Assembly: GCA_020631975.1 (NCBI GenBank) | Contig: JACKGO010000003.1 | Location: 170,973 to 234,972, forward strand | Length of the DNA stretch: 64,000 nt | Source: Candidatus Nomurabacteria bacterium | GTDB taxonomy: Bacteria; Patescibacteriota; Saccharimonadia; Saccharimonadales; CAIOMD01 | Reading direction: 5' to 3' | In this document: in pieces, positions 19,207 through 41,801 of the stretch | How positions within the stretch are numbered: position 1 is the stretch's first letter | Layout of the letters: each line of letters begins with the position of its first letter | The notes under the pieces: generated by a model | Databases searched by the model: none | The model's input: only the letters and a program-made list of their open reading frames with translations | Told to the model about the DNA's origin: nothing | Program-made: the position numbers and the translations under genes

Positions 19207-20313
19207 CTAGTTAAATATGCTACGTTTACCGCTAGCAGACTGGAATTCTTGTAGTAATTCTTTTTGCTTTTTAGATAACTTAGTAGGTGTTTTTACATCT
19301 AGTGTAACTATATGGGGGCCTCTAGTATCTTTCTTAAGATGCGGTACACCATGGCCAGACAATTTAAAATCATCACCATTTTGCGTACCAGCAGGTATCT
19401 TCATAGTCACCTCACCATCAACGGTTTCTACTTTCAACACACCGCCTAATGCTGCTGTTACCATGTCTACGGTTTCGTGGCTTAGTATCAAGTCACCTTC
19501 ACGTGTAAACTTTTTGTGCGGCTTTACGCGTATGTGCACAAATAAATCTCCTTTTTGGCCATCTTGTATTGCTTCGCCGTATTCGCGCAAGCGGATAGTC
19601 GCACCATCATCTATTCCGGCCGGAATTTTAAGATCTATTTTTTGTTCTTTGCGCTTGACTCCTCTCCCACCGCATACACTACAGGCCTTTTCTGGTACTT
19701 TACCTGTACCATGACAATCGGGGCACGTTTGTGGTTGTTGAATATTACCTAGAATCGTACGTGTAACAGTGACCACTTGCCCACTGCCATTGCAAGTTTT
19801 ACAGGTTTTGAGTTCATACCCAGGCTCTGCTCCTTTACCTTTGCAGTGCTCACAATCGCTTTCTATGTTGAGCTTGATTGATTTCTCTACGCCAAACACC
19901 GCTTCTTCAAAAGTGAGCTCGATAGCTACCTCGATATCACGCCCACGACGGGTGCGCGTACGCTGCTGACCACCAAAAAAGCTACCAAACATATCGCCTA
20001 AGTCACCAAAGTCAAAATTGATATTCTGGCCATTAAAATTAAAACCGCCGCCGCTAAAGTCGTAGGCACCACCGCCAAATCCTTGGCCACTAGCGCCTCC
20101 AACACCCGCATGTCCAAACTGGTCATATCGTTTGCGTTTTTCGGTGTCTTTTAATACTTCATAGGCTTCGTTAAGTTCTTTGAACTTGGTTTCGTCGCCA
20201 CCTTCTTTATCGGGGTGATGTTGTACAGCCATACGCCGAAATGCTTTTTTAATTTCGTCGGCCGAAGCATCTTTTGTGACACCCAACACTTCATAATAAT
20301 CACGTTTAGTCAT
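19207..20313 (-). CDS. dnaJ: Molecular chaperone DnaJ
   Basis: J-domain HPD; G/F region; four CxxCxGxG repeats (CEHCKGKG, CKTCNGSG, CPDCHGTG, CSVCGGRG). Confidence 0.97.
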   Translation of the reverse strand: MTKRDYYEVLGVTKDASADEIKKAFRRMAVQHHPDKEGGDETKFKELNEAYEVLKDTEKRKRYDQFGHAGVGGASGQGFGGGAYDFSGGGFNFNGQNINFDFGDLGDMFGSFFGGQQRTRTRRGRDIEVAIELTFEEAVFGVEKSIKLNIESDCEHCKGKGAEPGYELKTCKTCNGSGQVVTVTRTILGNIQQPQTCPDCHGTGKVPEKACSVCGGRGVKRKEQKIDLKIPAGIDDGATIRLREYGEAIQDGQKGDLFVHIRVKPHKKFTREGDLILSHETVDMVTAALGGVLKVETVDGEVTMKIPAGTQNGDDFKLSGHGVPHLKKDTRGPHIVTLDVKTPTKLSKKQKELLQEFQSASGKRSIFN

Positions 20314-20590
20314 AAATTAGTATCCCTATCACTGTTATTGTTTGCATGGTTACCCAAATTAGTTGTCCATAAAATATGGGCCGCAACTTAAAGACAAAAC
20401 CATACACTAAAAATACAATACCGAAAAATAAATACCCCAGCCACGTTGCTAGTGATACATCTTGAGCACTCTGATTACTATAAATATGTGCAATTTGAGG
20501 AATAGTTAAAAGTGGTTGCACAAGCGCAGCAATAAGCGCATATAGTTCTATACGCTTATTGCGTTGTACGGTAGATTGTACGTGGCTCAC
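20306..20590 (-). CDS. SemiSWEET (PQ-loop, 3-TM) sugar transporter family protein
   Basis: 94 aa, 3 TM, LLTIPQIAHIYSNQSAQDVSLATWLGYLFFGIVFLVYG matches the PQ-loop/MtN3 half-unit. Its GTG start overlaps the dnaK TAG, and its 3' end overlaps the dnaJ start. Confidence 0.8.
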   Translation of the reverse strand: MSHVQSTVQRNKRIELYALIAALVQPLLTIPQIAHIYSNQSAQDVSLATWLGYLFFGIVFLVYGFVFKLRPIFYGQLIWVTMQTITVIGILIYD

Positions 20591-30649: not shown

Positions 30650-31576
30650 TTATACCGTTTTTTCATCTGTTTGACTACGTGAAATAAATCTGGCAGAACG
30701 TTTAGTTAATTGAATATCAACACCAGACACCTGAATCACTTTTCCAGGCAACATCGTTTTGATAGCTACGGTTACTTTTTCAATAGTAGGAGTATCAACG
30801 TTTGCCGCGTTAGCTCTTCGTAGCAACATATGCACTACTTCTGTGGAGATATCGTGGGGCAATTTGCAAAACCAGCTTCTATTTAACACCAGTGTATCTT
30901 TATGTAGCCCGCGGGTAATAAGTAGCCGGAGCTCTTTGTCAATTTTTGTGTTTAATAATTGCGTGTTTTGAATTATAGCCAGTGCCTGAGCGCGTTGCTG
31001 GGTATTCATCTTGGCAACGACAGTATGCCTAATGTTATTTCTGGCGTATGCTGTATCAATATTTGTACTGTCTTCACGCCACTGCAAATTATGAGCTTTG
31101 GCGTAATTGTAGATATCACGCTTAGGAACATAAAGTATTGGCCGAATAATCGTATCGGTACTTTGCAACGAAGCAATACCTTTGCGTTTTGTGCCTCGCA
31201 TAATGTTAAGAAACATTGTTTCAATCATATCGTCCTGGTGATGAGCAGTAATAATTGCAGCAGCTTGATGTTTTTTTTGCATTCTATATAAGAATTCATA
31301 ACGTTTTTGGCGGGCCAAATCCTCGCTGGTATCATTGCCTAAAGACAACTGCGTTGTTTCGTATGTATAGCCACTATTGTTTGCTAGCTCTTCAACAAAC
31401 ATAGCATCTATGCCAGAGTCTTCTCGTATACCGTGGTCTACATGAGCAATCACAAGCGTTATATTATGTTGTTTTTTTAATAAATCTAACAGTACAACTG
31501 AATCAACACCACCTGAAACAGCTAATATATACGTGCCGTCGCTAATCTTACTATATGATAATTTGTTCAACTTCAC
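30650..31576 (-). CDS. tilS: tRNA(Ile)-lysidine synthase TilS
   Basis: PP-loop SGGVDS, 308 aa, immediately upstream of ftsH as in many bacteria. Confidence 0.9.
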   Translation of the reverse strand: MKLNKLSYSKISDGTYILAVSGGVDSVVLLDLLKKQHNITLVIAHVDHGIREDSGIDAMFVEELANNSGYTYETTQLSLGNDTSEDLARQKRYEFLYRMQKKHQAAAIITAHHQDDMIETMFLNIMRGTKRKGIASLQSTDTIIRPILYVPKRDIYNYAKAHNLQWREDSTNIDTAYARNNIRHTVVAKMNTQQRAQALAIIQNTQLLNTKIDKELRLLITRGLHKDTLVLNRSWFCKLPHDISTEVVHMLLRRANAANVDTPTIEKVTVAIKTMLPGKVIQVSGVDIQLTKRSARFISRSQTDEKTV

Positions 31577-31658: not shown

Positions 31659-33851
31659 ATGTCTAATAAACTACTTATCGTATCTACGAGGCTGCCTGTA
31701 AGCGTTACAAAACAAGACGGTGTATTGCAATTCCACCCAAGTACTGGTGGATTAGCAACTGGTGTGTCAAAAGTCAGTGAAACCAGAGACAGCATATGGG
31801 TTGGTTGGCCTGGCATTAGTTCAGAAGAACTCAGCAATAAAGAAAAGTCACAAATAACCCAAGAGCTAAAAAAGTATAAGTGCCACCCAGTTTTCTTAAC
31901 AACTCAAGAAGTTGACTATTTTTACTCTGGGTATTGTAACGCAACGATCTGGCCTTTATTCCACTATTTTTCTAATATGGCCGAGTTTAAAACAGAATAT
32001 TGGAATTCTTATGTACAAGTCAATGCACTCTTTTTTAAAGAAGTGAACAAATTTATAAAAGATAGTTCTGTAGTTTGGGTACATGATTACCAATTAATGT
32101 TGTTACCGAAATTAATAAGAGACCACCACGCCAATGCGCGTATAGGCTTTTTCTTGCATACGCCGTTTCCATCGTATGAAATCTTTAGAATACTTCCTGA
32201 GCGAACAGATATATTAGAAGGGCTTCTAGGCTCTGACTTGGTAGGTTTTCATACCTATGATTACGTAAGACATTTCTTAAGTAGCGTGCAAAGAAATTTA
32301 GGATATGATGTTAATCTTGGAAACATCACTGTAGGCAACAGAGTTGTGAAGGCAGATGCCTACCCAATTAGTATTGATTACCGCAAATTTGCAAAAACAC
32401 CAACTGTTAATCAGGTTAAAAAGATACTCAAGAATATAGGTGTATTACATGATAAAAAGACTGTGATATTAGCGGTAGATAGAGCAGATTATTCCAAAGG
32501 CATTCCTGCACGACTAGACGCATTTGAAACATTCTTAAAGCAAAACCCTACCTATCACGAAAAAGTAGTACTCATACTACTCGCCGTACCTTCGAGGGGT
32601 GATGTAGAAGCATATCAAGACCTACGAGATACCATTGAACAAAAAGTTAGTAGAATAAATGGTGAATATTCAACCGTAGACTGGAACCCCATACATTATC
32701 GATACCAGTCACTACCGTTCCATGAATTAAGCGCACTATATGCAATGGCAGAGATTATGTTAGTGACGCCTTTGCGAGATGGTATGAATTTAGTCGCAAA
32801 AGAATATGTCGCATCTCATCACAAAGGAAAAGGTGTGCTCATATTAAGTGAAATGGCCGGTGCTGCAAGTGAACTTCAAGAGGCACTGCAGGTGAATCCA
32901 AACGACCACCAGATGGTTGCAGATGCACTAGTAACTGCCATAGAAATGCCCACAAAAGAGCAAAAAAAACGTATGTTGGCAATGCAAGATAGGATATCTA
33001 CGTACAATATTTCTAAATGGGCAGAAGATTACATTCGAGGTCTTGAAGCAACCCATAAAGAATCTGCTACCACGACAAAAAGACTTATTGGTAATACACT
33101 TAACACGTTGCTTAACGATTATACAACTGCCAATAAACGTCTTATCCTATTGGATTATGATGGTACCTTGAAGACTTTTGTGGCATCACCAAAAGCTGCG
33201 CTCGCGTACCCCACTCCTAAAGTTAGGCGTATTATCAAAAAGTTTACAGATGATCATAAAAATAAAGTTATGGTCGTCAGTGGTAGACCAAAAAGTACTT
33301 TAGATTCTTTCTTTAAAAACAAAGGACCTGGGCTCGTAGCCGAACATGGAGGTTGGATATTTGATACAGGTAGCTGGATAAAAACTAGTCTGATGCCTAA
33401 AAAATGGAAGAAACCAATTATCAAAATCCTCAAAGAATATACCGAAAAAACGCCAGGAGCATCAGTAGAAGAAAAGGATTTCTCTATTGTCTGGCACTAT
33501 AGAAATGTATCACCAGATCTTGCATACGTTCGTAAAGAAGAGCTCAAAATGACGCTACAAAATGAGCTAGAACATACTGATATTGATGTCTATGAAGGTA
33601 ATAAAATTATTGAAGTTAAGCCACAAAATATGAACAAAGGTGCAATAGTTGCCGAAATAATGAGTCAAGATGTATGGGATTTTATATTATGCATTGGCGA
33701 CGACTACACAGACGAAGATATGTTTAAAGTGATGCCAGATCGTGCATACAGTATTAAAGTTGGGCTGGGTGAATCTAGTGCCAGTTATCAAGTAGATACC
33801 GTTAAAGACGTCGTGAATATTTTAGATCAAATAACCAAACTTGATACGTAA
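31659..33851 (+). CDS. Bifunctional trehalose-6-phosphate synthase / trehalose-6-phosphate phosphatase (OtsA-OtsB fusion)
   Basis: N-terminal GT20 domain (LLIVSTRLP..., HDYQLMLLP, LRDGMNLVAKEY) fused to a HAD phosphatase (LLDYDGTL ... GDDYTDEDMF). Confidence 0.9.
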   Translation: MSNKLLIVSTRLPVSVTKQDGVLQFHPSTGGLATGVSKVSETRDSIWVGWPGISSEELSNKEKSQITQELKKYKCHPVFLTTQEVDYFYSGYCNATIWPLFHYFSNMAEFKTEYWNSYVQVNALFFKEVNKFIKDSSVVWVHDYQLMLLPKLIRDHHANARIGFFLHTPFPSYEIFRILPERTDILEGLLGSDLVGFHTYDYVRHFLSSVQRNLGYDVNLGNITVGNRVVKADAYPISIDYRKFAKTPTVNQVKKILKNIGVLHDKKTVILAVDRADYSKGIPARLDAFETFLKQNPTYHEKVVLILLAVPSRGDVEAYQDLRDTIEQKVSRINGEYSTVDWNPIHYRYQSLPFHELSALYAMAEIMLVTPLRDGMNLVAKEYVASHHKGKGVLILSEMAGAASELQEALQVNPNDHQMVADALVTAIEMPTKEQKKRMLAMQDRISTYNISKWAEDYIRGLEATHKESATTTKRLIGNTLNTLLNDYTTANKRLILLDYDGTLKTFVASPKAALAYPTPKVRRIIKKFTDDHKNKVMVVSGRPKSTLDSFFKNKGPGLVAEHGGWIFDTGSWIKTSLMPKKWKKPIIKILKEYTEKTPGASVEEKDFSIVWHYRNVSPDLAYVRKEELKMTLQNELEHTDIDVYEGNKIIEVKPQNMNKGAIVAEIMSQDVWDFILCIGDDYTDEDMFKVMPDRAYSIKVGLGESSASYQVDTVKDVVNILDQITKLDT

Positions 33852-33962
33852 CGCTTGCATAGTAGTGTTATACGTATGAGGATACTTGGTTTTTATCTAA
33901 ACTATGTTAAAAATAGCACCTAAAGTATCGTTTGCTTCATAAAACATAGTTAAGGACAAACT

Positions 33963-33985
33963 AAAAAGGCCACTTGGTAGTGACC
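33963..33985 (-). terminator. Terminator downstream of tRNA-Met
   Basis: Minus strand reads GGTCACT-ACCA-AGTGGCC followed by TTTTT. Confidence 0.7.
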
Positions 33986-33994
33986 ATTTTAGTT

Positions 33995-34071
33995 TGGTAG
34001 CAGGGACGAGATTTGAACTCGTGACCCCAGGCTTATGAGTCCTGTGCTCTAACCAACTGAGCTACCCTGCC
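33995..34071 (-). tRNA. tRNA-Met-like (anticodon CAU, elongator-type), CCA encoded
   Basis: GGCAGGGTAGCTCAGTTGGTTAGAGCACAGGACTCATAAGCCTGGGGTCACGAGTTCAAATCTCGTCCCTGCTACCA resembles E. coli elongator tRNA-Met. Has a G1-U72 pair and an A31-G39 mismatch. Confidence 0.85.
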
Positions 34072-34139
34072 AGCTATACAATGCACCATGTACTATACCA
34101 AATTTATCTACTAATTTACAGCACCGCCGATTGTACACT

Positions 34140-34185
34140 AAAAAAGAATGACCCTAAAGTATCGCAGCTGGTCATTCTTTTTTTG
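34140..34185. terminator. Bidirectional stem-loop terminator
   Basis: AAGAATGACC-16 nt-GGTCATTCTT flanked by an A-run and T-run. Confidence 0.65.
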
Positions 34186-34406
34186 CGCTAACCTGTATTA
34201 ACAGGCGTGCTCCTACTTTTTATTTTACGCTACACTAACAACGCATCAATACGTCGTAGTGCCTCGTCAGAGGTAGGAGTCAGCTCAAACGCAAGTACTA
34301 CGTCACTCATAGAGCGCTCCTGTTGATAGTTAAATTTGTTTTACTTTTTTGCTTTTTATAAGCAATGATTGTATTGTATACGAATTTTACTCAATTGTCA
34401 ATAACC

Positions 34407-35387
34407 TTATGCTATTTTTTTGTTGTATAAAATACTAGAAAAAGTAGCGACTGATATATTCGGTATAAGAACGTCCGCTTCATATATAGCAATTTGGCGA
34501 GCGTGTTCTGTCACAGTGGCACTAATGTCTGTAATTTTTGAAATCGCCTGATACGGGTTGCCCCGATATACATACATACTAGTAGCCCCGCGCGGCGTTG
34601 TTTTCTTAATAATTTTTGCTTTGTTAGCCACGTGTAGTCCTACCCAAACGCGTATACCAGCAGGTAGTAGTGGTGTGCTCTGAGAAAAGTGCATGAAGGC
34701 CGTTTTTGGTAAACTATCGGTAAGATTTCGTGCTACTGTATCGTGCACAAAAAATGATACTTGTATGTTTTTTTGAAGATAAAGTTTTTGTACCAGTTGC
34801 ACTATTTCATCTGGTTGCTGCAAATCATCAAAGTATACATGTGTCACATGTTTAAGCTGGCTCTTTACATTACTATTTTTTACTAAAATATACGGCTTTT
34901 TTATGCAATCCATTGGTTTTGCTACGTATATTTCTTTTGATTGTTGGGCTAAGCCGACGACAATACCTTTGGCGGATCCGCCCTGTATGCGCGACCCTGC
35001 AAACAGCATATTTTTTTGGTCTGAAATTGGTAACAAAGATTTACTGGCAAACGTATGCTTGTATGATAAACCACTGCCACCAATAATGTTATCGTCTTGT
35101 ACAGCTAGTGAACGCGATTCCAGAAGACGCACAGTAGCAGGTACGATGTCACCGATATTAAATCTAATAATATCACCCACTATGAGTTTATCGGCTCGTA
35201 TATGTGTATATGCTCCATTTCTGAGTACTTTATATACATATAATGGCCACGCATTTTTAGGAATGAAAAACGGCTTGTTATACATTGTATGCTTGCCTAT
35301 AGTCACACCCTTCGTAATGTCAACGCTCAGTGCTTCTAACACTTCAGAGGTTGTCATGCGATACCACTGTTTGTCCATTGTTCCCAC
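34407..35387 (-). CDS. Soluble P-type-ATPase-like protein lacking TM segments, N-domain and catalytic motifs
   Basis: Collinear Cation_ATPase_N (WYRMTTSEVLEALSVDITKG), A-domain (VLRNGAYTHIRADKLIVGDII..GDIVPATVRLLES..NMLFAGSRIQGGSAKGIVV) and P-domain remnants. No hydrophobic helices. Confidence 0.75.
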   Translation of the reverse strand: MGTMDKQWYRMTTSEVLEALSVDITKGVTIGKHTMYNKPFFIPKNAWPLYVYKVLRNGAYTHIRADKLIVGDIIRFNIGDIVPATVRLLESRSLAVQDDNIIGGSGLSYKHTFASKSLLPISDQKNMLFAGSRIQGGSAKGIVVGLAQQSKEIYVAKPMDCIKKPYILVKNSNVKSQLKHVTHVYFDDLQQPDEIVQLVQKLYLQKNIQVSFFVHDTVARNLTDSLPKTAFMHFSQSTPLLPAGIRVWVGLHVANKAKIIKKTTPRGATSMYVYRGNPYQAISKITDISATVTEHARQIAIYEADVLIPNISVATFSSILYNKKIA

Positions 35388-35466
35388 CTTCTACATCCTC
35401 ATCCTTGTTATTGCGGTAATGTTTACTTAAATGATATAGTTTTTATAAAGAGAGGGCAAAATTAAA

Positions 35467-35709
35467 ATGGGCACCGCTTGGTATATCGCCAGCAGTACAG
35501 TAGCAGCACAAGGAGTTGCAGCGCGCGCAATTATTGCTGCTGCATTGAGTATTGTTGGAATTATATTGGTATATCGGTTCGCCAGAAAAAATCCTATTCT
35601 GGCTGTCGTTTTGTATTGCCTTGTTATCTTTATAATACTTTTTACGAGCGTAATTCTTATTATTAGCGCTGCTCAAAATATAGTCAGTACTGCTGGGGTT
35701 CAAATATGA
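35467..35709 (+). CDS. Small 2-TM membrane protein
   Basis: 80 aa with two hydrophobic helices; ATGA overlap with the next gene. Confidence 0.55.
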   Translation: MGTAWYIASSTVAAQGVAARAIIAAALSIVGIILVYRFARKNPILAVVLYCLVIFIILFTSVILIISAAQNIVSTAGVQI

Positions 35710-36398
35710 ATGATTCTAGTCTTATGTTAATTGGGCTGATGATTGGTCTTACTATTGGCATGAGCGCGTCGTCTGTTGGTACCTACACTTCTATGATGAC
35801 ATCACTTCTAGGACATAAAAAAGCCCAGTGGGAAGTTATTACACTTGCTATGTTAGTTCTCTTCTACATATTTATGCTTGTTATCATCGCTTCGCTTACC
35901 CTTGCAACTATAATTACATTTTTTAGTCCTTCGTATTTAGACGCCATGTATATAGCTGGCCCAATTATTGGGATAACCGTTGGTCTTGTATATGTGCGCC
36001 ACTATTTTTGGGACCACCCTATTGTGCGCATAACACACCATAAAACTGCTGCACATAAACATACTACAAAATATTCTGGGTACCTGCAGCCATTAGTAGT
36101 CGCTGCGACACTTTTGTACGTGACCGGCCTGCCTATTATTGTAAGTATGCTTTTACTAACACTGCTCGCTCAATTATCTGGTGGCTCTATGATTACATGG
36201 AGTGTCTCTTTGGCGTTTGGTATAATCGTTCCGTTATATGGTGTACTAAGCCTTATAGCAAGTAAAACCAAAGTCTCACGAGTTATTGCATGGAAAGAAA
36301 GTGTCAAAACCACAATGGCGTTATATAGTGGGTTAGCAATTATTCTATTATCATGGTTCGTTTTGTATGCTGCATTAATACAAGGTGGCAACACATGA
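35706..36398 (+). CDS. Polytopic membrane protein (about 6 TM) with His-rich central loop
   Basis: 230 aa, no Cys, loop RHYFWDHPIVRITHHKTAAHKHTTK; overlaps both neighbours. Confidence 0.6.
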   Translation: MNDSSLMLIGLMIGLTIGMSASSVGTYTSMMTSLLGHKKAQWEVITLAMLVLFYIFMLVIIASLTLATIITFFSPSYLDAMYIAGPIIGITVGLVYVRHYFWDHPIVRITHHKTAAHKHTTKYSGYLQPLVVAATLLYVTGLPIIVSMLLLTLLAQLSGGSMITWSVSLAFGIIVPLYGVLSLIASKTKVSRVIAWKESVKTTMALYSGLAIILLSWFVLYAALIQGGNT

Positions 36399-36664
36399 CA
36401 CATGTCGTTAAAGCATCTGGGGCCATTCAAAATTACTCGGCAGAAAAACATCGCCGTAGCATTCAGCGCAGCTTATATGCGGTACACGTAAAAGCTGCAG
36501 TTGCTCATGAGATTACCGACAAAATTTTACACGCTTGTCATTCGTGGCGAGAAAACAAAGCAGAAGTCACTACCCTAGATCTTAAAACTTTCACTATAAA
36601 ACAGCTCACTCACTATGATAAAGATGCTGCAATGGTCTACAAAAAGCATAAGGATATATGGTAA
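36395..36664 (+). CDS. Stand-alone ATP-cone domain protein
   Basis: MTHVVKASGAIQNYSAEKHRRSIQRSL... matches the ATP-cone N-terminal pattern; ATGA overlap upstream and a 7-nt overlap downstream. Confidence 0.65.
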   Translation: MTHVVKASGAIQNYSAEKHRRSIQRSLYAVHVKAAVAHEITDKILHACHSWRENKAEVTTLDLKTFTIKQLTHYDKDAAMVYKKHKDIW

Positions 36665-38064
36665 GGTTAAGCAATATGGATAGACGTAACGTAAGTAAAA
36701 AATATAGTGCCGATGTCATCGTAGTTGGTAGCGGAGCCGGTGGGTCTGTTGCAGCTTTAACCCTTGCCGATGCTGGCAAACGCGTCATCATAGTAGAAAA
36801 AGAAGCTGTCGGTGGTGATTGTGCCAACTATTCTTGTATTCCTACAAAAGCACTATTAGAAACAGCAGCTATGCAAAAAATGATTACACAGGCACCTGCC
36901 CATGGCATAAAGATTGGGAATGTAAAACTCAGTTACGAAGCTGCAATTCATTCTGTTAATCAATCCATTCATAGTACAGGCGTGCTACATCCGGGTCATA
37001 GCCCATATGACAATGCAAATATACAGCTTGTACGTGGCCAAGCCCATTGTTTAGACAAACACACGATAAGTGTAGATTTAACTCGCTACACTGCTGCCAA
37101 TATCATTATTGCCAGTGGAAGCACACCTTTTGTTCCCAAAATACCTGGTTTACAAGAAATTGATTACATAACATATAGGACTTTTGCAAAACAAAAAACA
37201 CTGCCCCCGTCTGTTGCAATTATTGGTGGAGGTACCACGGCGTACGAATATGCTCAAATATACGCAGCATTTGGTGTAAAAACACATGTGTTTGAATCTC
37301 ATTATCACTTATTTTCTTCGTTTGATTCTGAAGTAGGTGACCTCGCAGAGAGTGCCTTAACCAATACTGGCGTACGGATACACACGGCTGCGAACATCAC
37401 TAAAGTGCACACAACCAAAAACGGTAATCTCATTACTTTTTCTCAAGCCGGCCAAGAACATCATGTATCGGTAGATAGTATTTTTGTAGCAGCGGGCAAT
37501 ATACCAAATACAGATATAGGGTTAGAAAACGCTGGTGTTCTTAATTCTGAAGAAGGTATTCGTGTAAATAAGCGCCTGCAAACATCACAAAAGAATATCT
37601 TTGCCATTGGCGATGTAACTGGTAATAGCCATAGCGCAAGCAGTGCGGTACACCAAGGTCTTGTTACCGCCCACAATATTCTGCACCGTAAGAAAATCAT
37701 GTTTCAAGATCATGCTGTTCCGCGAGTCGCCTATGGCATGCCAGAAATAGTTGTTGTAGGCAAAACAGAAAGACAGCTCAAACTAACAGGTTTACCATAC
37801 CAGACTTCAATAGCACCGCTAGGTATTGTTGGTAAAGCACACACAAGCGCCTACACGAGTGGATTCGTTAAAATTGTTGCTTCTTACACTGGCCACGTAG
37901 TTGGTGTAAGTATAGTTGCCCCCCAGGCCAGTGAATTTGCTAGTGAACTCACTTTTGCTATACAGCATTGCCACCGCGCCTGTGATATCGCAAACACAAT
38001 CCATCCTTTTTCTAGCTGGAGTGAGGCTGTAAGAGTCGCAGCTAGTAAAATTTACTGCACTTAG
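36658..38064 (+). CDS. FAD-dependent pyridine nucleotide-disulfide oxidoreductase (Lpd/GR/MerA family)
   Basis: VVGSGAGGS, redox-active GGDCANYSCIPTK, second Rossmann IIGGGTTAYEYA, C-terminal dimerisation domain with HPFSSWSE. Confidence 0.88.
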   Translation: MVRLSNMDRRNVSKKYSADVIVVGSGAGGSVAALTLADAGKRVIIVEKEAVGGDCANYSCIPTKALLETAAMQKMITQAPAHGIKIGNVKLSYEAAIHSVNQSIHSTGVLHPGHSPYDNANIQLVRGQAHCLDKHTISVDLTRYTAANIIIASGSTPFVPKIPGLQEIDYITYRTFAKQKTLPPSVAIIGGGTTAYEYAQIYAAFGVKTHVFESHYHLFSSFDSEVGDLAESALTNTGVRIHTAANITKVHTTKNGNLITFSQAGQEHHVSVDSIFVAAGNIPNTDIGLENAGVLNSEEGIRVNKRLQTSQKNIFAIGDVTGNSHSASSAVHQGLVTAHNILHRKKIMFQDHAVPRVAYGMPEIVVVGKTERQLKLTGLPYQTSIAPLGIVGKAHTSAYTSGFVKIVASYTGHVVGVSIVAPQASEFASELTFAIQHCHRACDIANTIHPFSSWSEAVRVAASKIYCT

Positions 38065-38197
38065 TGCTGTACTTATCTGTCTTTTTATGGTTATATTAGT
38101 ATACGCAAGATATGTCACTCCTTTAAGTACTTCTTAAAGCAAAGTAAGACAGAACGGGTCGTACTTGCGGTAAGTAGAAAAGAAGGAACAAAGAAGA

Positions 38198-38539
38198 ATG
38201 GCATTCAAACTATTTGTTGGCAGCCTGTCTTGGGGAACCGATGACGAAGCGCTGCAAGCTGCATTTGCTCCATTTGGTACAGTTGTATCCGCTAGCGTGA
38301 TCAAAGATCGCGAAAGTGGCCGCAGCAAAGGCTTTGGCTTCGTGGAGTACGAAACTCCAGAAGAAGGTAAAGCTGCTATCGATGCTCTGAACAACTCAGA
38401 GCTAGATGGTCGTACCATTGTGGTAAATGAAGCACGCCCAAAAGAAGATCGTCCTCGTAACGGTGGCGGCGGAAGCCGTGGCGGTTATGGTGGTGGTAAT
38501 CGAAGTGGCGGCGGTTCATTCCGCACCAGCAGCTGGTAA
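38198..38539 (+). CDS. RRM-type RNA-binding protein with Gly/Arg-rich tail
   Basis: RNP2 KLFVGSL, RNP1 KGFGFVEY, C-terminal RNGGGGSRGGYGGGNRSGGG. Confidence 0.92.
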   Translation: MAFKLFVGSLSWGTDDEALQAAFAPFGTVVSASVIKDRESGRSKGFGFVEYETPEEGKAAIDALNNSELDGRTIVVNEARPKEDRPRNGGGGSRGGYGGGNRSGGGSFRTSSW

Positions 38540-38558
38540 TCTTACTACGCTGAAAACT

Positions 38559-38594
38559 AAAATAGCTCCTAGCAATAGGAGCTATTTTAGTTTT
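38559..38594 (+). terminator. Rho-independent terminator after the RRM gene
   Basis: AAAATAGCTCCTA-GCAA-TAGGAGCTATTTT followed by a T-rich run. Confidence 0.85.
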
Positions 38595-38629
38595 CAGATT
38601 TTACAACCTTGCTCGTGGAAGATATTGCA

Positions 38630-38653
38630 TAAAAAATCCGCCTTCTGGCGGAT
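38630..38653 (-). terminator. Terminator directly after the tRNA-3'-end fragment
   Basis: Minus strand reads ATCCGCC-AGAA-GGCGGAT followed by TTTTTT. Confidence 0.8.
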
Positions 38654-38667
38654 AATTTAACTCTATT

Positions 38668-38817
38668 TGGTGGGGGTGACAGGATTTGAACCCGAAGACT
38701 GCCAGTGGCAGTGTGAGTTCACGCTCATTGACGCTTGATTTCCGCGTCGCTAATTGTTTGCTTATAATGCCGCCAACTAGCACACGTGTTGAGGCTGGAA
38801 CAGCCGAGTGACCAATC
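38668..38817 (-). repeat. Pseudo-tRNA unit: Ile2-like tRNA positions ~40-49 (GATTGGTCAC), a 115-nt insert, then an exact copy of the last 25 nt (GGTTCAAATCCTGTCACCCCCACCA)
   Basis: 38668-38692 is identical to 38854-38878, and 38808-38817 is identical to 38880-38889. The insert contains hairpins GGCTG-TTC-CAGCC, GACGC-N9-GCGTC and CTGCC-ACT-GGCAG. Confidence 0.8.
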
Positions 38818-38818
38818 T

Positions 38819-38847
38819 AAAAATAAAAATACTCCCCACTATGGGAG
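38819..38847 (-). terminator. Terminator-like hairpin after the Ile2-like tRNA
   Basis: Minus strand reads CTCCC-ATAGTG-GGGAG followed by TATTTTTATTTTT. Confidence 0.6.
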
Positions 38848-38853
38848 CACTTT

Positions 38854-38929
38854 TGGTGGGGGTGACAGGATTTGAACCTGTGACCAATCGGTTATGAGCC
38901 GACTGCTCTAACCACTGAGCTACACCCCC
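38854..38929 (-). tRNA. tRNA with CAU anticodon, Ile2 (lysidine)-like; Met not excluded
   Basis: GGGGGTGTAGCTCAGTGGTTAGAGCAGTCGGCTCATAACCGATTGGTCACAGGTTCAAATCCTGTCACCCCCACCA. D-loop and variable loop resemble E. coli ileX; tilS is present in the window. Confidence 0.85.
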
Positions 38930-39071
38930 GTGTTGTAAAGGTGTCTGCCCGTCTGCTGACGGACTGCACCCCGTGGTATATATGTGCGAGCTGCCAAAAC
39001 AATGGTTAGCTGCTATAGTATACCAAACAGCACAATGATTTTACAGATACGATATAATTAGATTACACACC

Positions 39072-39512
39072 ATGAAGCAAAAAGTACAAACAATTATACA
39101 AAAACTCAGCGCGATAGACGCCCGAACATTAGGTTTGCTGGCAGTGCTCTTAGTAGCCGTATCTGTTACATATAGTAGTGCTAAGATTATCCACAAAAAC
39201 TACCAGCTAGAGCAACAAATCACCATTTTGCAACAAAAAAATGCCTTGCAAGAACAAATTAATAGCAACCAAAAACTAAAAAATGAGTATTACAAAACAG
39301 ATACGTACCTAGAACTAGCTGCACGTAAGTTTTTTAACAAAGCTGCTGCGGGCGAAATTCTTGTACTTGTACCAGAAGATGTTGCGATGTCTTATACTAT
39401 TCCGCCCCAAGCAGATAATGCAGCAAAATCTAATACAACACCGTCGTTTCTTACCAATTGGCGTATGTGGCTAGATTTTTTGAGTGGCAAGCCAATAGAC
39501 AAAGAATCTTGA
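39072..39512 (+). CDS. Septum formation initiator (FtsB/DivIC-like) protein
   Basis: N-terminal TM, Leu/Gln-rich coiled coil (YQLEQQITILQQKNALQEQI), then ...YLELAARKFFNKAAAGEILV. Confidence 0.6.
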   Translation: MKQKVQTIIQKLSAIDARTLGLLAVLLVAVSVTYSSAKIIHKNYQLEQQITILQQKNALQEQINSNQKLKNEYYKTDTYLELAARKFFNKAAAGEILVLVPEDVAMSYTIPPQADNAAKSNTTPSFLTNWRMWLDFLSGKPIDKES

Positions 39513-39561
39513 CACATTGCAGTTAAAGCCTTAAAATACGTTATCGTGCCTACATACTATT

Positions 39562-39697
39562 GCAGGTTCGAGCAGTGGCAGCATCGCGAAGGCTCATAAT
39601 CGCGATCAGCGTAAGCGGCGAATATATGATAAGCCAGAGAAAATCTACCATTTACAATTAACTATTTTCACGGAGCGAAGCTATATAACCACAAGGT
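39562..39697 (+). repeat. Scrambled tRNA-fMet-derived mosaic upstream of the intact gene
   Basis: Exact blocks of the tRNA in non-native order: GCAGGTTCGAG (T arm), GAGCAGTGGCAGC (D arm), GGCTCATAA (anticodon loop), ATAACCACAAGGT (39685-39697). Confidence 0.75.
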
Positions 39698-39727
39698 TAT
39701 CCCCTTCACTTCTTAACCACCCTATTT

Positions 39728-39802
39728 TGCGGGGTAGAGCAGTGGCAGCTCGTGTGGCTCATAACCACAAGGTCGCAGGTTCGAGTCCTGCCCCCGCGAC
39801 CA
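39728..39802 (+). tRNA. Initiator-like tRNA-Met (CAU), CCA encoded
   Basis: TGCGGGGTAGAGCAGTGGCAGCTCGTGTGGCTCATAACCACAAGGTCGCAGGTTCGAGTCCTGCCCCCGCGACCA is close to E. coli tRNA-fMet. Weak U1-G72 end pair. Confidence 0.85.
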
Positions 39803-39810
39803 AGAAAAAT

Positions 39811-39836
39811 CACTCACCTTGTGTGGGTGTTTTTTC
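39811..39836 (+). terminator. Terminator after the initiator-like tRNA
   Basis: CACTCAC-CTTGT-GTGGGTG followed by TTTTTT. Confidence 0.75.
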
Positions 39837-39973
39837 TTGTACGGAGTGCAGGACGAGATCCTTTCGGCAATAGCCGAACTGGTTCAGATAATTCAAGCGA
39901 TAAGCGCAGAATTATATGATGAAACCGAATTTATCATTCCAGTATTTAAGATAAATCCGGCTAGAAGCTATAT

Positions 39974-39990
39974 TCCTGCCCCCGCGACCA
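39974..39990 (+). repeat. Exact copy 2 of the tRNA-fMet 3' end (TCCTGCCCCCGCGACCA)
   Basis: 17/17 identity with 39786-39802, followed by the same AGAAAAA; preceded by GAAGCTATAT as in the upstream mosaic. Confidence 0.9.
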
Positions 39991-39998
39991 AGAAAAAA

Positions 39999-40026
39999 TC
40001 TTTAGCATTTGCTAGGGATTTTTTCT
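39999..40026 (+). terminator. Terminator-like hairpin after copy 2
   Basis: TCTTTAGCA-TT-TGCTAGGGA followed by TTTTTTCTT. Confidence 0.65.
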
Positions 40027-40160
40027 TTATCTTGGGATAAGACTCGGTTCTGCGACTCGGCAAGCTTACTTGACGATAGTCGCAGGTTGGAAGACAAAGC
40101 TTGCGCGCAGGTGCTTGCACCGAGCACAAGCTGCAGGCGCATCGAGCCTTAGCAAGATAT

Positions 40161-40177
40161 TCCTGCCCCCGCGACCA
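40161..40177 (+). repeat. Exact copy 3 of the tRNA-fMet 3' end
   Basis: 17/17 identity. A further tRNA block GTCGCAGGTT lies at 40079-40088, 72 nt upstream. Confidence 0.9.
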
Positions 40178-40219
40178 TGTAAAAGAGTTAGGTACGAGTT
40201 AAAAGGTTTAGATAATTTA

Positions 40220-40765
40220 CTACGATATTTCTAGTACTAGATTTTGAAATTTTAGTGTGTCGCTCGTATATGGCTCGCCTACGTTAACAAATCCTATTTG
40301 TCTGAGTAATCTACTACTAGCTTCGTTTGTGATTAGATGTCTTGAATATATGACCTTACTGCCAAGCCCTTGAAGATACTCAATAACGGCACTAACACTA
40401 GCAGAACCAATACCTTTACCCCGCATAGCTGGGTCACCAACCATAATATGCACTGATGGACCAGGTAGGTAATGTGAGTCTTCTAAGTCAACCCAAATAG
40501 AACCAACTACTGTGCCGTTATATTCAATCATCCAGTTCAGCTGGTCTGTACGTTCTAGAAAGTTTCTGACCCTTTCTGATTCTGTTTCTACTGTTGTTGG
40601 GAGTATGTTATCTATAACGTCCTTTGTGTTCCCCATAGATTGCATAGTGACATGTCCTAGTTCACCATTAAGCCATTGCACGCCAAGTTTGGTGTCACGC
40701 TGTACGTCTGGAACTATTAGTGTTATAAGGGAATCAGTAGTTTTAAGCTCGGGTGCCTTCATCAC
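40220..40765 (-). CDS. GNAT family N-acetyltransferase
   Basis: Acetyl-CoA motif MRGKGIGSASVSAVIEY; 181 aa. Confidence 0.85.
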   Translation of the reverse strand: MMKAPELKTTDSLITLIVPDVQRDTKLGVQWLNGELGHVTMQSMGNTKDVIDNILPTTVETESERVRNFLERTDQLNWMIEYNGTVVGSIWVDLEDSHYLPGPSVHIMVGDPAMRGKGIGSASVSAVIEYLQGLGSKVIYSRHLITNEASSRLLRQIGFVNVGEPYTSDTLKFQNLVLEIS

Positions 40766-40808
40766 TGTATTTTAGCAGGTATTGTCTGTGGCGGTCTTTC
40801 TTCAAGTT

Positions 40809-41366
40809 TTATTGCCGTAAACTCTTTGTAGCGTCTGAAACTTTGGTTACTTCTGACAGCAACGAGCTGGCATCACCACGCACCAGCTCTGGTTTAATAG
40901 AACCATCGTTATTAAAGGCAGCCCATACATCAAGCACGTGGTACCGTGATTTTAGCGGGAACATACGTAGTTCGCTGGCAATATTTACTAAATGCTCAAT
41001 TGCACGGGTCGCACCCATGCCACCGTAGCCGACAAAGGCAACAGGTTTATATGCCCATTCTTTATATAAATAATCTATAGCATTTTTAAGTACCGCAGAT
41101 GTACCGTGGTTATATTCTGGGGTTACCCACACATAACCATCTGCTTTGCTAATGATTTGTGACCATGATTTTGTATGATCTTTACTGTATTGATCCATCA
41201 TCGCACTTTTAGGTTCATCTAGCATTGGCAAATTAATATCTGCTAAATCTATAATTTCAACCGTTGAACCAGCCGGTATTTGGGCCTGAGACATAAACCA
41301 ATCGGCAACGTTACGGCCAACACGTCCAGGGCGGGTAGAGCCAACTATTACTTGTATATGCGCCAT
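40809..41366 (-). CDS. NAD(P)H-dependent FMN reductase family oxidoreductase
   Basis: MAHIQVIVGSTRPGRVG..., TPEYNHG flavodoxin-like motif. Confidence 0.88.
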   Translation of the reverse strand: MAHIQVIVGSTRPGRVGRNVADWFMSQAQIPAGSTVEIIDLADINLPMLDEPKSAMMDQYSKDHTKSWSQIISKADGYVWVTPEYNHGTSAVLKNAIDYLYKEWAYKPVAFVGYGGMGATRAIEHLVNIASELRMFPLKSRYHVLDVWAAFNNDGSIKPELVRGDASSLLSEVTKVSDATKSLRQ

Positions 41367-41474
41367 ATTTGTATCTCCTTTTCTGTATATAGTATATACG
41401 CTTTACTTTGTATAGTCACTACTATACTGCATATCACTATACTTTGTAAAGTCTATTTATGGTATACTTTTTGT

Positions 41475-41801
41475 ATGAAGACTCAATCAGCACCCCAAGA
41501 ACTACAAAAAGCTGGTTGCATTGCAAAAGCACTGCAGATACTTGGTGATAAATGGACGCCCCTGCTGATTCGTGAACTAACGTTATGCCCGCAAACATTT
41601 AGCGATTTAGAAAAATTACTAATAGGCATTAGCCCGCGCACACTAAGCCAGCGTCTTAACATGCTTGTGCAAGAAGATATTGTAGACAAGCGCTTGTATT
41701 GTGAGCACCCACCCCGCTATTCATACCAGCTGAGCCCAAAAGGTAGAGATTTGCAAACCATACTTCAGGACATGGCCCAGTGGAGTGCGAAATATAAGTA
41801 A
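41475..41801 (+). CDS. HxlR family transcriptional regulator
   Basis: From the ATG at 41475: ...CIAKALQILGDKWTPLLIREL...FSDLEK.LIGISPRTLSQRLNMLVQEDIV. Divergent from the FMN reductase gene. Confidence 0.88.
   Translation: MKTQSAPQELQKAGCIAKALQILGDKWTPLLIRELTLCPQTFSDLEKLLIGISPRTLSQRLNMLVQEDIVDKRLYCEHPPRYSYQLSPKGRDLQTILQDMAQWSAKYK

Follow-up and report, generated by a model that had tools for sequence, protein, structure and literature searches.

The stretch of DNA analysed here, called the window, is 64,000 nucleotides (nt) long and belongs to a member of the Saccharibacteria, as judged from the names attached to its homologues. In this window, two tRNA genes with a CAU anticodon lie on either side of a DivIC/FtsB-like gene, and the 3' end of each tRNA is repeated exactly downstream of its gene at intervals of just under 190 nt. 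The segments that end in these tail copies are termed units. Units A and B follow an initiator-like tRNA on the plus strand, and unit D follows, on the minus strand, a tRNA that an earlier note on this DNA had called Ile2-like, a putative label that is retained here. The two arrays are composed as follows.

38854-38929, minus strand: Ile2-like tRNA gene, CAU anticodon (ARAGORN; Rfam tRNA, 78.4 bits)
38668-38853, minus strand: unit D, 186 nt, behind the Ile2-like tRNA
38825-38854, minus strand: terminator of unit D
38808-38817, minus strand: tRNA-derived block of unit D, GATTGGTCAC (shuffle p=0.017)
38793-38805, minus strand: conserved hairpin of unit D, GGCTG-TTC-CAGCC, followed by a variable AT-rich middle
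about 38693-38735, minus strand: conserved module of unit D with the hairpin CTGCC-ACT-GGCAG
38668-38692, minus strand: exact 25-nt tail copy of unit D
38636-38653, minus strand: second terminator-like hairpin, after the tail copy of unit D
39728-39802, plus strand: initiator-like tRNA gene, CAU anticodon (ARAGORN, Rfam)
39803-39990, plus strand: unit A, 188 nt, the first behind the initiator-like tRNA
39811-39839, plus strand: terminator of unit A
39902-39977, plus strand: copy of hairpin module E1 in unit A, ending in a promoter-like TTAAGA-17-TATATT
39974-39990, plus strand: exact 17-nt tail copy of unit A
39991-40177, plus strand: unit B, 187 nt (185 nt in some strains)
about 39992-40036, plus strand: terminator of unit B
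40079-40091, plus strand: tRNA-derived block of unit B, GTCGCAGGTTGGA (shuffle p=0.003), within the hairpin CTGCGAC...GTCGCAG
40096-40133, plus strand: hairpin module Z of unit B (outer stem, GCGCAG, inner hairpin, CGAGCA, outer stem)
40161-40177, plus strand: exact 17-nt tail copy of unit B
40178-40219, plus strand: native downstream flank (TGTAAAAGAGTTAGG...), written 'tail' in the array formulae below, before a GNAT gene

The last 25 nt of the Ile2-like tRNA (GGTTCAAATCCTGTCACCCCCACCA) are repeated at 38668-38692 with a spacing of 186 nt, and the last 17 nt of the initiator-like tRNA (TCCTGCCCCCGCGACCA) at 39974-39990 and 40161-40177 with spacings of 188 and 187 nt. Exact matching thereby reproduces the spacings reported in the earlier note. 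The architecture that it described is also found, with CCA, an A-rich stretch, a terminator-like hairpin, about 120 nt and then the exact tail, and an A-rich stretch and a terminator-like hairpin come after each tail copy. Its statement that the intervening sequences are largely unrelated between the two loci stands as well: units A, B and D, and a further unit C found in one strain, have no mutual similarity detectable by BLAST. The second short tRNA-derived block that it placed in all units is present in units B and D but not in unit A (shuffle p=0.87). No integrase gene lies between the tail copies in the window, and the only listed open reading frame (ORF) of at least 60 amino acids (aa) in the units is a spurious 73-aa TTG ORF (39819-40040) running across A and B; the units are gene-free.

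The repeats have the features of attachment (att) sites: they consist of the 3' portion of a tRNA, lie downstream on the same strand and start at a canonical position. Identity begins at tRNA position 59 in the 17-nt repeats, 55 in the 21-nt repeat of unit C, 52 in the 25-nt repeat and 35 in a 42-nt repeat at another locus (L015), which places the start in the T loop for the repeats of 17-25 nt and in the anticodon loop for that of 42 nt. These two loops are reportedly the classical integrase sublocations, as Williams is said to have set out in 2002. The arrays resemble the attL/attR repeats left by integrases in having a downstream tRNA 3' repeat on the same strand whose first position falls in one of these two loops. 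However, such sites normally have a prophage or an island with its integrase between them, whereas here only 110-170 nt of non-coding DNA intervene.

Contigs from many samples that encode an identical DivIC protein provide a set of conspecific strains, and their arrays show presence/absence polymorphism. The array at the initiator-like tRNA reads tRNA-A-B-tail in the window, in L001 and in others. It reads tRNA-C-A-B-tail in L008, where unit C (189 nt), a third unrelated type at this tRNA, is found in this one strain only. In L007 it reads tRNA-A-B'-island, and in L003, where unit A is absent, tRNA-B'-island-tail. The island is 2.2 kb long and carries genes for a methyltransferase and a dienelactone hydrolase; the native flank of the window (40178-40219) also follows the distal end of the L003 island. 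All strain differences in the array begin and end at tail copies, and the units are therefore discrete segments that can be gained and lost. What varies fits accretion, namely att-like-bounded segments without a recombinase of their own, standing in tandem with others. At the Ile2-like tRNA, the tail of unit D (homologous to window 38666-38676) differs in L003 and L007 by six changes in 11 nt, four of them C to T. This change, from CCCCCACCAAA to CTCCTATTAGT, stands out in a unit that otherwise differs at two positions, and the cluster looks like a conversion tract or boundary, or like clustered deamination. Runs of N lie within the arrays of L006 (3732-3830) and L050 (unit 2). Assemblers and scaffolders break at array repeats, so that unit counts in draft genomes are likely underestimated.

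The wider comparison covers 80 other Saccharibacteria with the tRNA-DivIC-tRNA order, which were recovered by an alignment-based scan; a query with the single DivIC recovered none of them. Tail copies are present at 14 of 115 homologous tRNAs, all 14 downstream on the same strand and none upstream or inverted. A simple state, in which a canonical promoter, the initiator-like tRNA, a terminator and the next gene follow one another, is seen in L011, L012, L015 and L113. The spacings elsewhere are 134, 138, 138, 162, 170, 173, 180, 182, 183, 215, 257 and 262 nt, and two longer units of 545 and 732 nt contain one ORF each. Unit A itself measures 188 or 187 nt in the clade of the window versus 166 nt in another species. 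Because the spacings are broad and unit A changes in length, the family has no single fixed length, and the constant unit size that the earlier note had proposed does not hold as a family property. The spread across the 80 Saccharibacteria comes near to the outcome that the note itself had named as a refutation, a broad, unclustered set of spacings in a genome-wide survey. Within the species, however, units A, B, C and D all fall at 186-189 nt, an agreement that is improbable by chance (P about 5e-5 to 3e-4 for four draws from the cross-species lengths). Phasing to the DNA helix (189 nt being 18 turns) was considered and rejected as a general length rule, since inspection reveals no 10.5-nt periodicity elsewhere.

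The same types of unit turn up again in other species and behind the other tRNA. L011 has a 183-nt homologue of unit D with about 80% identity overall, compensatory changes in its hairpin and only two substitutions in the last 68 nt, in a region that is about 71% identical overall. In L011 a D-like unit starts again after the second tail, which makes a true tandem repeat. The earlier note had argued that the units are not randomly decayed scars, and this is upheld by the discrete tail-bounded cassettes, the sets that vary between strains, the types recurring elsewhere and the covarying hairpins described below.

The units follow a general order in the sense of the tRNA. A bidirectional terminator comes first. 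Two tRNA-derived segments follow, one an inverted and diverged copy of the 3' portion and the other a direct copy of roughly positions 45-56; a hairpin module stands at the place of the T loop, and the exact tail closes the unit. When 16 units from several species are combined, the tRNA-derived blocks inside them reach significance on both strands (Fisher p of 4e-6 and 1e-7), although not every unit has them. Unit A has a weak inverted segment resembling the tRNA 3' end, seen by eye (GTACGGAGTGCAGGACGAGATCC), that is not significant (shuffle p=0.14). ARAGORN and Rfam call only three real tRNAs in the window, the units keeping just tRNA blocks of 10-13 nt. Rfam at E<=1 over 33000-41500 returns the tRNAs and chance matches to eukaryotic families only, with no match to rtT (RF00391). 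A bias of G-U over A-C mismatches, which could tell which strand might be an RNA, has no statistical power here because the inverted segments are too diverged.

Three families of hairpin modules, E1, X and Z, are common to several species and loci. Module E1 occurs in unit A, L015, L025 and L125; upstream of the initiator-like tRNA it sits in an anticodon loop, and downstream in a T loop. RNAalifold predicts 18 pairs for it, 10 of which have compensatory changes. Module X, 52 nt long and found in seven species, has 24 predicted pairs, 4 with compensatory changes. Module Z is shared by unit B, L036, L050, L025 and L109, and its covarying stems were read by eye. These covarying hairpins could be recombination sites or tRNA-tailed RNAs.

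The surroundings of the arrays contribute a further tRNA-derived segment. The features are:

30650-31576: TilS-like PP-loop ORF
33995-34071, minus strand: tRNA gene, CAU anticodon, elongator-type tRNA-Met (ARAGORN, Rfam)
39072-39512: DivIC/FtsB-like gene, between the Ile2-like and initiator-like tRNAs
39509-39537, plus strand: promoter-like site TTGACA-17-TAAAAT, an 11/12 consensus match only, before the leader and the initiator-like tRNA
39545-39727, plus strand: leader of about 183 nt, from the promoter-like site to the initiator-like tRNA
40220-40765, minus strand: GNAT gene, beyond the native flank of the initiator-like array

The leader is a degenerate tRNA copy. Fragments of a D arm and of a CAU anticodon arm lie at 39560-39612, the copy is split in the anticodon loop by module E1 (39606-39690), and a further tRNA fragment, ATAACCACAAGGT, follows at 39685-39697. 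It occupies the gap of about 190 nt that separates the promoter-like site from the initiator-like tRNA. The leader is absent in the sister species L110, L113 and L116, yet it is found with 86% identity in the more distant L013. In the sister species a promoter-like TTGACA box lies inside a 65-nt gap before the initiator-like tRNA. This tRNA has U1-G72 in the window versus C1-A72 in relatives. The earlier note had seen repeats beside each of the three CAU tRNAs and tilS near the tRNA-Met. The TilS-like ORF does lie about 2.4 kb from that tRNA, but no 3'-end copy of the tRNA-Met of at least 11 nt is found anywhere in the window. At another locus, L109, the elongator-type tRNA-Met (20286-20362) has a downstream tail copy at about 20577 with 2 mismatches and a spacing of 230. 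At 38550-38597 of the window, directly after the gene of an RRM protein, a palindrome of 22 bp pairs perfectly around a loop of 4 nt and is probably the bidirectional terminator of that gene.

Several observations bear on horizontal movement. L025 carries one 160-nt segment behind both tRNAs with 82.5% identity, surrounded by locus-specific tRNA blocks, and in L125 the upstream and downstream E1 copies are nearly identical by eye. Unit A has a 187-nt orthologue with 89% identity in a sister species, in which DivIC is 73% and an FMN reductase 61% identical. Horizontal spread fits both the greater similarity of unit A than of its neighbouring genes and the presence of the leader in the distant L013 but not in the sister species. 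Variable accessory genes dominate the flanks of the loci, among them methyltransferases, hydrolases, NUDIX proteins and similar ones.

A candidate enzyme is encoded at the same tRNAs in relatives. This large serine recombinase measures about 525-550 aa, combines Resolvase, Recombinase and zinc-ribbon domains and is the sole type of recombinase at both tRNAs among the matches listed. At least 10 related loci have its gene abutting and overlapping one of the two tRNAs, which is the initiator-like tRNA in L022, L080, L082, L088 and L105-L109, and the Ile2-like tRNA in L070 and L110. Its coding sequence, antisense to the tRNA, crosses the terminator and then the tRNA's 3' half and ends in ...LVAGxGLEPxTSWL; the last 14 or so codons are encoded by the tRNA complement, and the stop lies in the anticodon loop. 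The family comprises at least 298 homologues at E<=1e-30. One recombinase element of 5.7 kb is followed by a Z-type unit at its distal side. The right ends of the elements in L105 and L109 and of the L003 island carry a diverged but conserved mimic of the T arm and acceptor, GTTCCAATTCGAATGNACCNGGGCRACCA, preceded in L105 and L109 by ...CTAGCCAACTCTTC..., and this mimic probably serves the serine-recombinase elements as their attP half-site. Because its far end carries the mimic, the L003 island is a remnant of such an element. A Pfam scan of 148 variable neighbouring ORFs found no tyrosine integrase among the 25 families listed, 91 further families being outside that list. Searching IMG/VR with the serine recombinase retrieved three distant relatives only. 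One distant relative overlaps a tRNA-Asn antisense on a high-GC IMG/VR contig (L102). In L070, a perfect 106-bp inverted repeat surrounds the recombinase gene (on the reverse complement, tRNA end -4 to +101 and +1783 to +1888). One of its arms begins inside the tRNA gene and takes in the final 4 nt, and the far side of the other arm has a diverged tRNA 3' portion in inverted orientation; the arrangement may reflect either a segment that can invert or an error of assembly.

On balance, and with a confidence just above even, we read these loci as tandem accretion arrays, in which miniature non-autonomous cassettes are stacked at a tRNA attachment or homology site that serves as a recombination hot spot. 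At each event, a new segment would be placed directly behind the tRNA body, supplying a replacement tail for the tRNA together with its own terminator. The previous tail copy would be pushed downstream, the newest unit would stand beside the tRNA, and the resulting order would be tRNA, unit, tail copy, unit, tail copy and native flank. Since the units are gene-free, they would be moved in trans. Either a site-specific recombinase, with the large serine recombinase as the candidate, would act on them, or DNA taken up by the cell would be exchanged homologously, anchored in the 75-nt tRNA and in a tail copy of 17-25 nt. Both routes would explain how units come to be lost or duplicated (as in L011) so precisely from one tail copy to the next, between which they may also be exchanged. 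We infer the order of events, the mobilising enzyme and any present activity of a unit. What can be seen directly in favour of accretion is how the units are built, how they differ between strains and are scattered across species, and how modules recur among them in a mosaic, together with the presence of single-gene cassettes at the same sites and of the recombinase family at the same tRNAs.

Several points weigh against it. The window has no serine-recombinase match, and no significant remnant of recombinase coding sequence is found in the units. The visible right ends of the recombinase elements carry the mimic instead of an exact tail, and this enzyme family may therefore not be the one that makes units with exact copies. 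Site-specific recombination would have to act on circles of about 187 bp, an unusually small substrate. No phage or plasmid in IMG/VR bears the units as an attP site: attP-like matches to the 17- and 25-nt cores plus flanks, the possible source raised in the earlier note, were sought there, and the 17-nt tail matches 11 contigs, mostly in tRNAs or 3'-half fragments of other phyla and none with unit flanks, while the 25-nt tail has zero matches, so that no attP source was found. Accretion alone does not predict that four unrelated units fall within 3 nt of one another. The conservation and compensatory changes of the hairpins could mean that the units are kept for a function and are not cargo-less passengers. 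As a separate observation, the 21-mer ATATTCCTGCCCCCGCGACCA is also present in a single copy (L120, 195-215) in an unrelated metagenome contig of high GC content, where no tRNA was called in its vicinity, and may be an att-like fragment in another phylum.

The main rival is compatible with accretion, the two not being mutually exclusive. It takes the units as genes, or as 3' external transcribed spacers, of small structured RNAs with a tRNA-like tail, which tRNA-processing enzymes would free, either out of the tRNA transcript or out of transcripts started at promoters of their own, as rtT RNA is freed from E. coli tyrT, with selection on the RNA keeping the tail exact and the hairpins paired. 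We consider it possible but unlikely. The compensatory changes in E1 and X are what an RNA would leave, although recombination sites or terminators should conserve their hairpins as well. Only two of the final 68 nt of unit D have changed in L011, as selection on an RNA end would have it; however, the six clustered changes in L003 and L007 fall in that very tail. A terminator stands after every unit, and some units have promoter-like sites aimed at the tail, but that of unit A would start transcription within the tail copy. The minimum free energy of most units is below that of shuffled sequences (z about -2 to -4.6), and the E. coli tyrT units with 19 nt of tRNA at their end can yield a stable RNA, rttR; however, no Rfam family matches, rtT included. 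Furthermore, the units are dispensable among near-identical strains and absent in most related species.

The period itself could have another origin. The entire transcription unit of the tRNA, from terminator through promoter and leader to the tRNA itself (about 190 nt), may have been duplicated in tandem long ago; the extra tRNA bodies would then have decayed while gene conversion with the live tRNA held the tails identical. This reading, which we consider improbable, accounts for the common period, as the parts sum to about 187 nt, and it can draw on the degenerate full tRNA copy directly upstream of the initiator-like tRNA, the true tandem repeat of a D-like unit in L011, the conversion-like boundary in L003 and L007 and the homologous repeats of E. 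coli tyrT. However, units A, B, C and D are unlike each other and unlike the 58 nt of tRNA expected before the tail, and neither ARAGORN nor Rfam detects a pseudo-tRNA in them. Sequence comparison suggests that A, B and C are each closer to units of other genomes than to one another. Unit types are common to several species and to both tRNAs, a pattern that duplication in place could not produce; a single strain has the inserted unit C, and lengths elsewhere range over 134-262 nt. Finally, it is very improbable that modules E1, X and Z are palindromic transposable elements, of the miniature inverted-repeat (MITE) or repetitive extragenic palindromic (REP) kind, that inserted in tRNA-like loops and colonised tail copies left as older integration scars: although each module forms a long, imperfect hairpin whose inverted ends are AT-rich and which occupies a loop position in a tRNA fragment, and E1 is present twice per genome in several species (as in L125), nhmmer finds E1 only beside the two tRNAs in the 64-kb window and about 100 loci, and there is no associated transposase and no clear target-site duplication.

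Accretion at tRNA genes has described counterparts. In form, the closest is the E. coli tyrT-tyrV locus, also named with tpr, where three 178-nt units, 95% identical, each contain the last 19 nt of tRNA-Tyr, and where one unit yields the 171-nt rtT RNA (rttR). The likeness lies in units of about 180 nt (178 versus 186-189) directly behind a tRNA, which include its last 19 nt (here 17-25) with CCA. The units described here are, however, mutually unrelated and give no match to the rtT family. The tyrT locus is not known to vary between strains as a cassette array. Cis-mobilizable elements (CIMEs) are flanked by att sites, lack recombination and transfer genes and stand in tandem at a tRNA 3' end; in streptococci they move by accretion and mobilisation. 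The described ones are kilobases long and recognisably derived from integrative conjugative or mobilizable elements. The present units share with CIMEs that att-like-bounded segments without recombination genes are stacked at a tRNA 3' end, but they are shorter than 200 nt and consist of terminator and hairpin modules, and their mobilisation is putative.

The closest described system is that of the ssrA islands of Dehalococcoides, which carry genes, are kilobases long and stand in tandem at the tmRNA gene (McMurdie et al. 2011, PMC3146451). Each island is bounded by a direct repeat of about 20 bp from the 3' end of the gene, starting in the T loop, and a large serine recombinase of about 540 aa is encoded on the reverse strand beside attL (PMC3146451). 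Some members without an integration module were proposed to be cis-mobilizable, the CIME concept being cited, and immediately upstream of every repeat stands a conserved motif that derives from the element (PMC3146451). Both systems have tandem insertions behind one small-RNA gene, repeats that start in the T loop and a serine recombinase, which here is found in relatives. In contrast to the ssrA islands, the present arrays consist of mostly gene-free units of 134-262 nt at two tRNA genes, no such recombinase is encoded in the window, and the visible right ends of its elements carry the diverged mimic instead of an exact repeat. No literature on tRNA-tail repeats in Saccharibacteria was found. 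What is new is a probable tRNA-site accretion array of mostly gene-free units shorter than 200 nt that are built from shared hairpin modules. More speculatively, and in our view doubtfully, Saccharibacteria may harbour a new class of miniature gene-free cassettes, made of a terminator, inverted and direct tRNA blocks, a covarying hairpin and an exact tail, which use the tRNA 3' end as a portable site of recombination and are exchanged between lineages, and whose length of about 187 nt would be constrained within a lineage by the recombination machinery or by a role as tRNA-tailed RNA.

How Saccharibacteria, which are host-dependent and have tiny genomes, gain and lose DNA is poorly known. The loci described here form a compact, recurrent hot spot in which accessory genes and gene-free cassettes accumulate behind two essential tRNA genes. 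Even as mere scars, the units would still mark the entry points of strain-specific genes. If they are mobile or make RNA, they would rank as the smallest elements of the cassette type associated with tRNA attachment sites, and the tyrT repeats of E. coli, long without an explanation, would have a natural counterpart in them.

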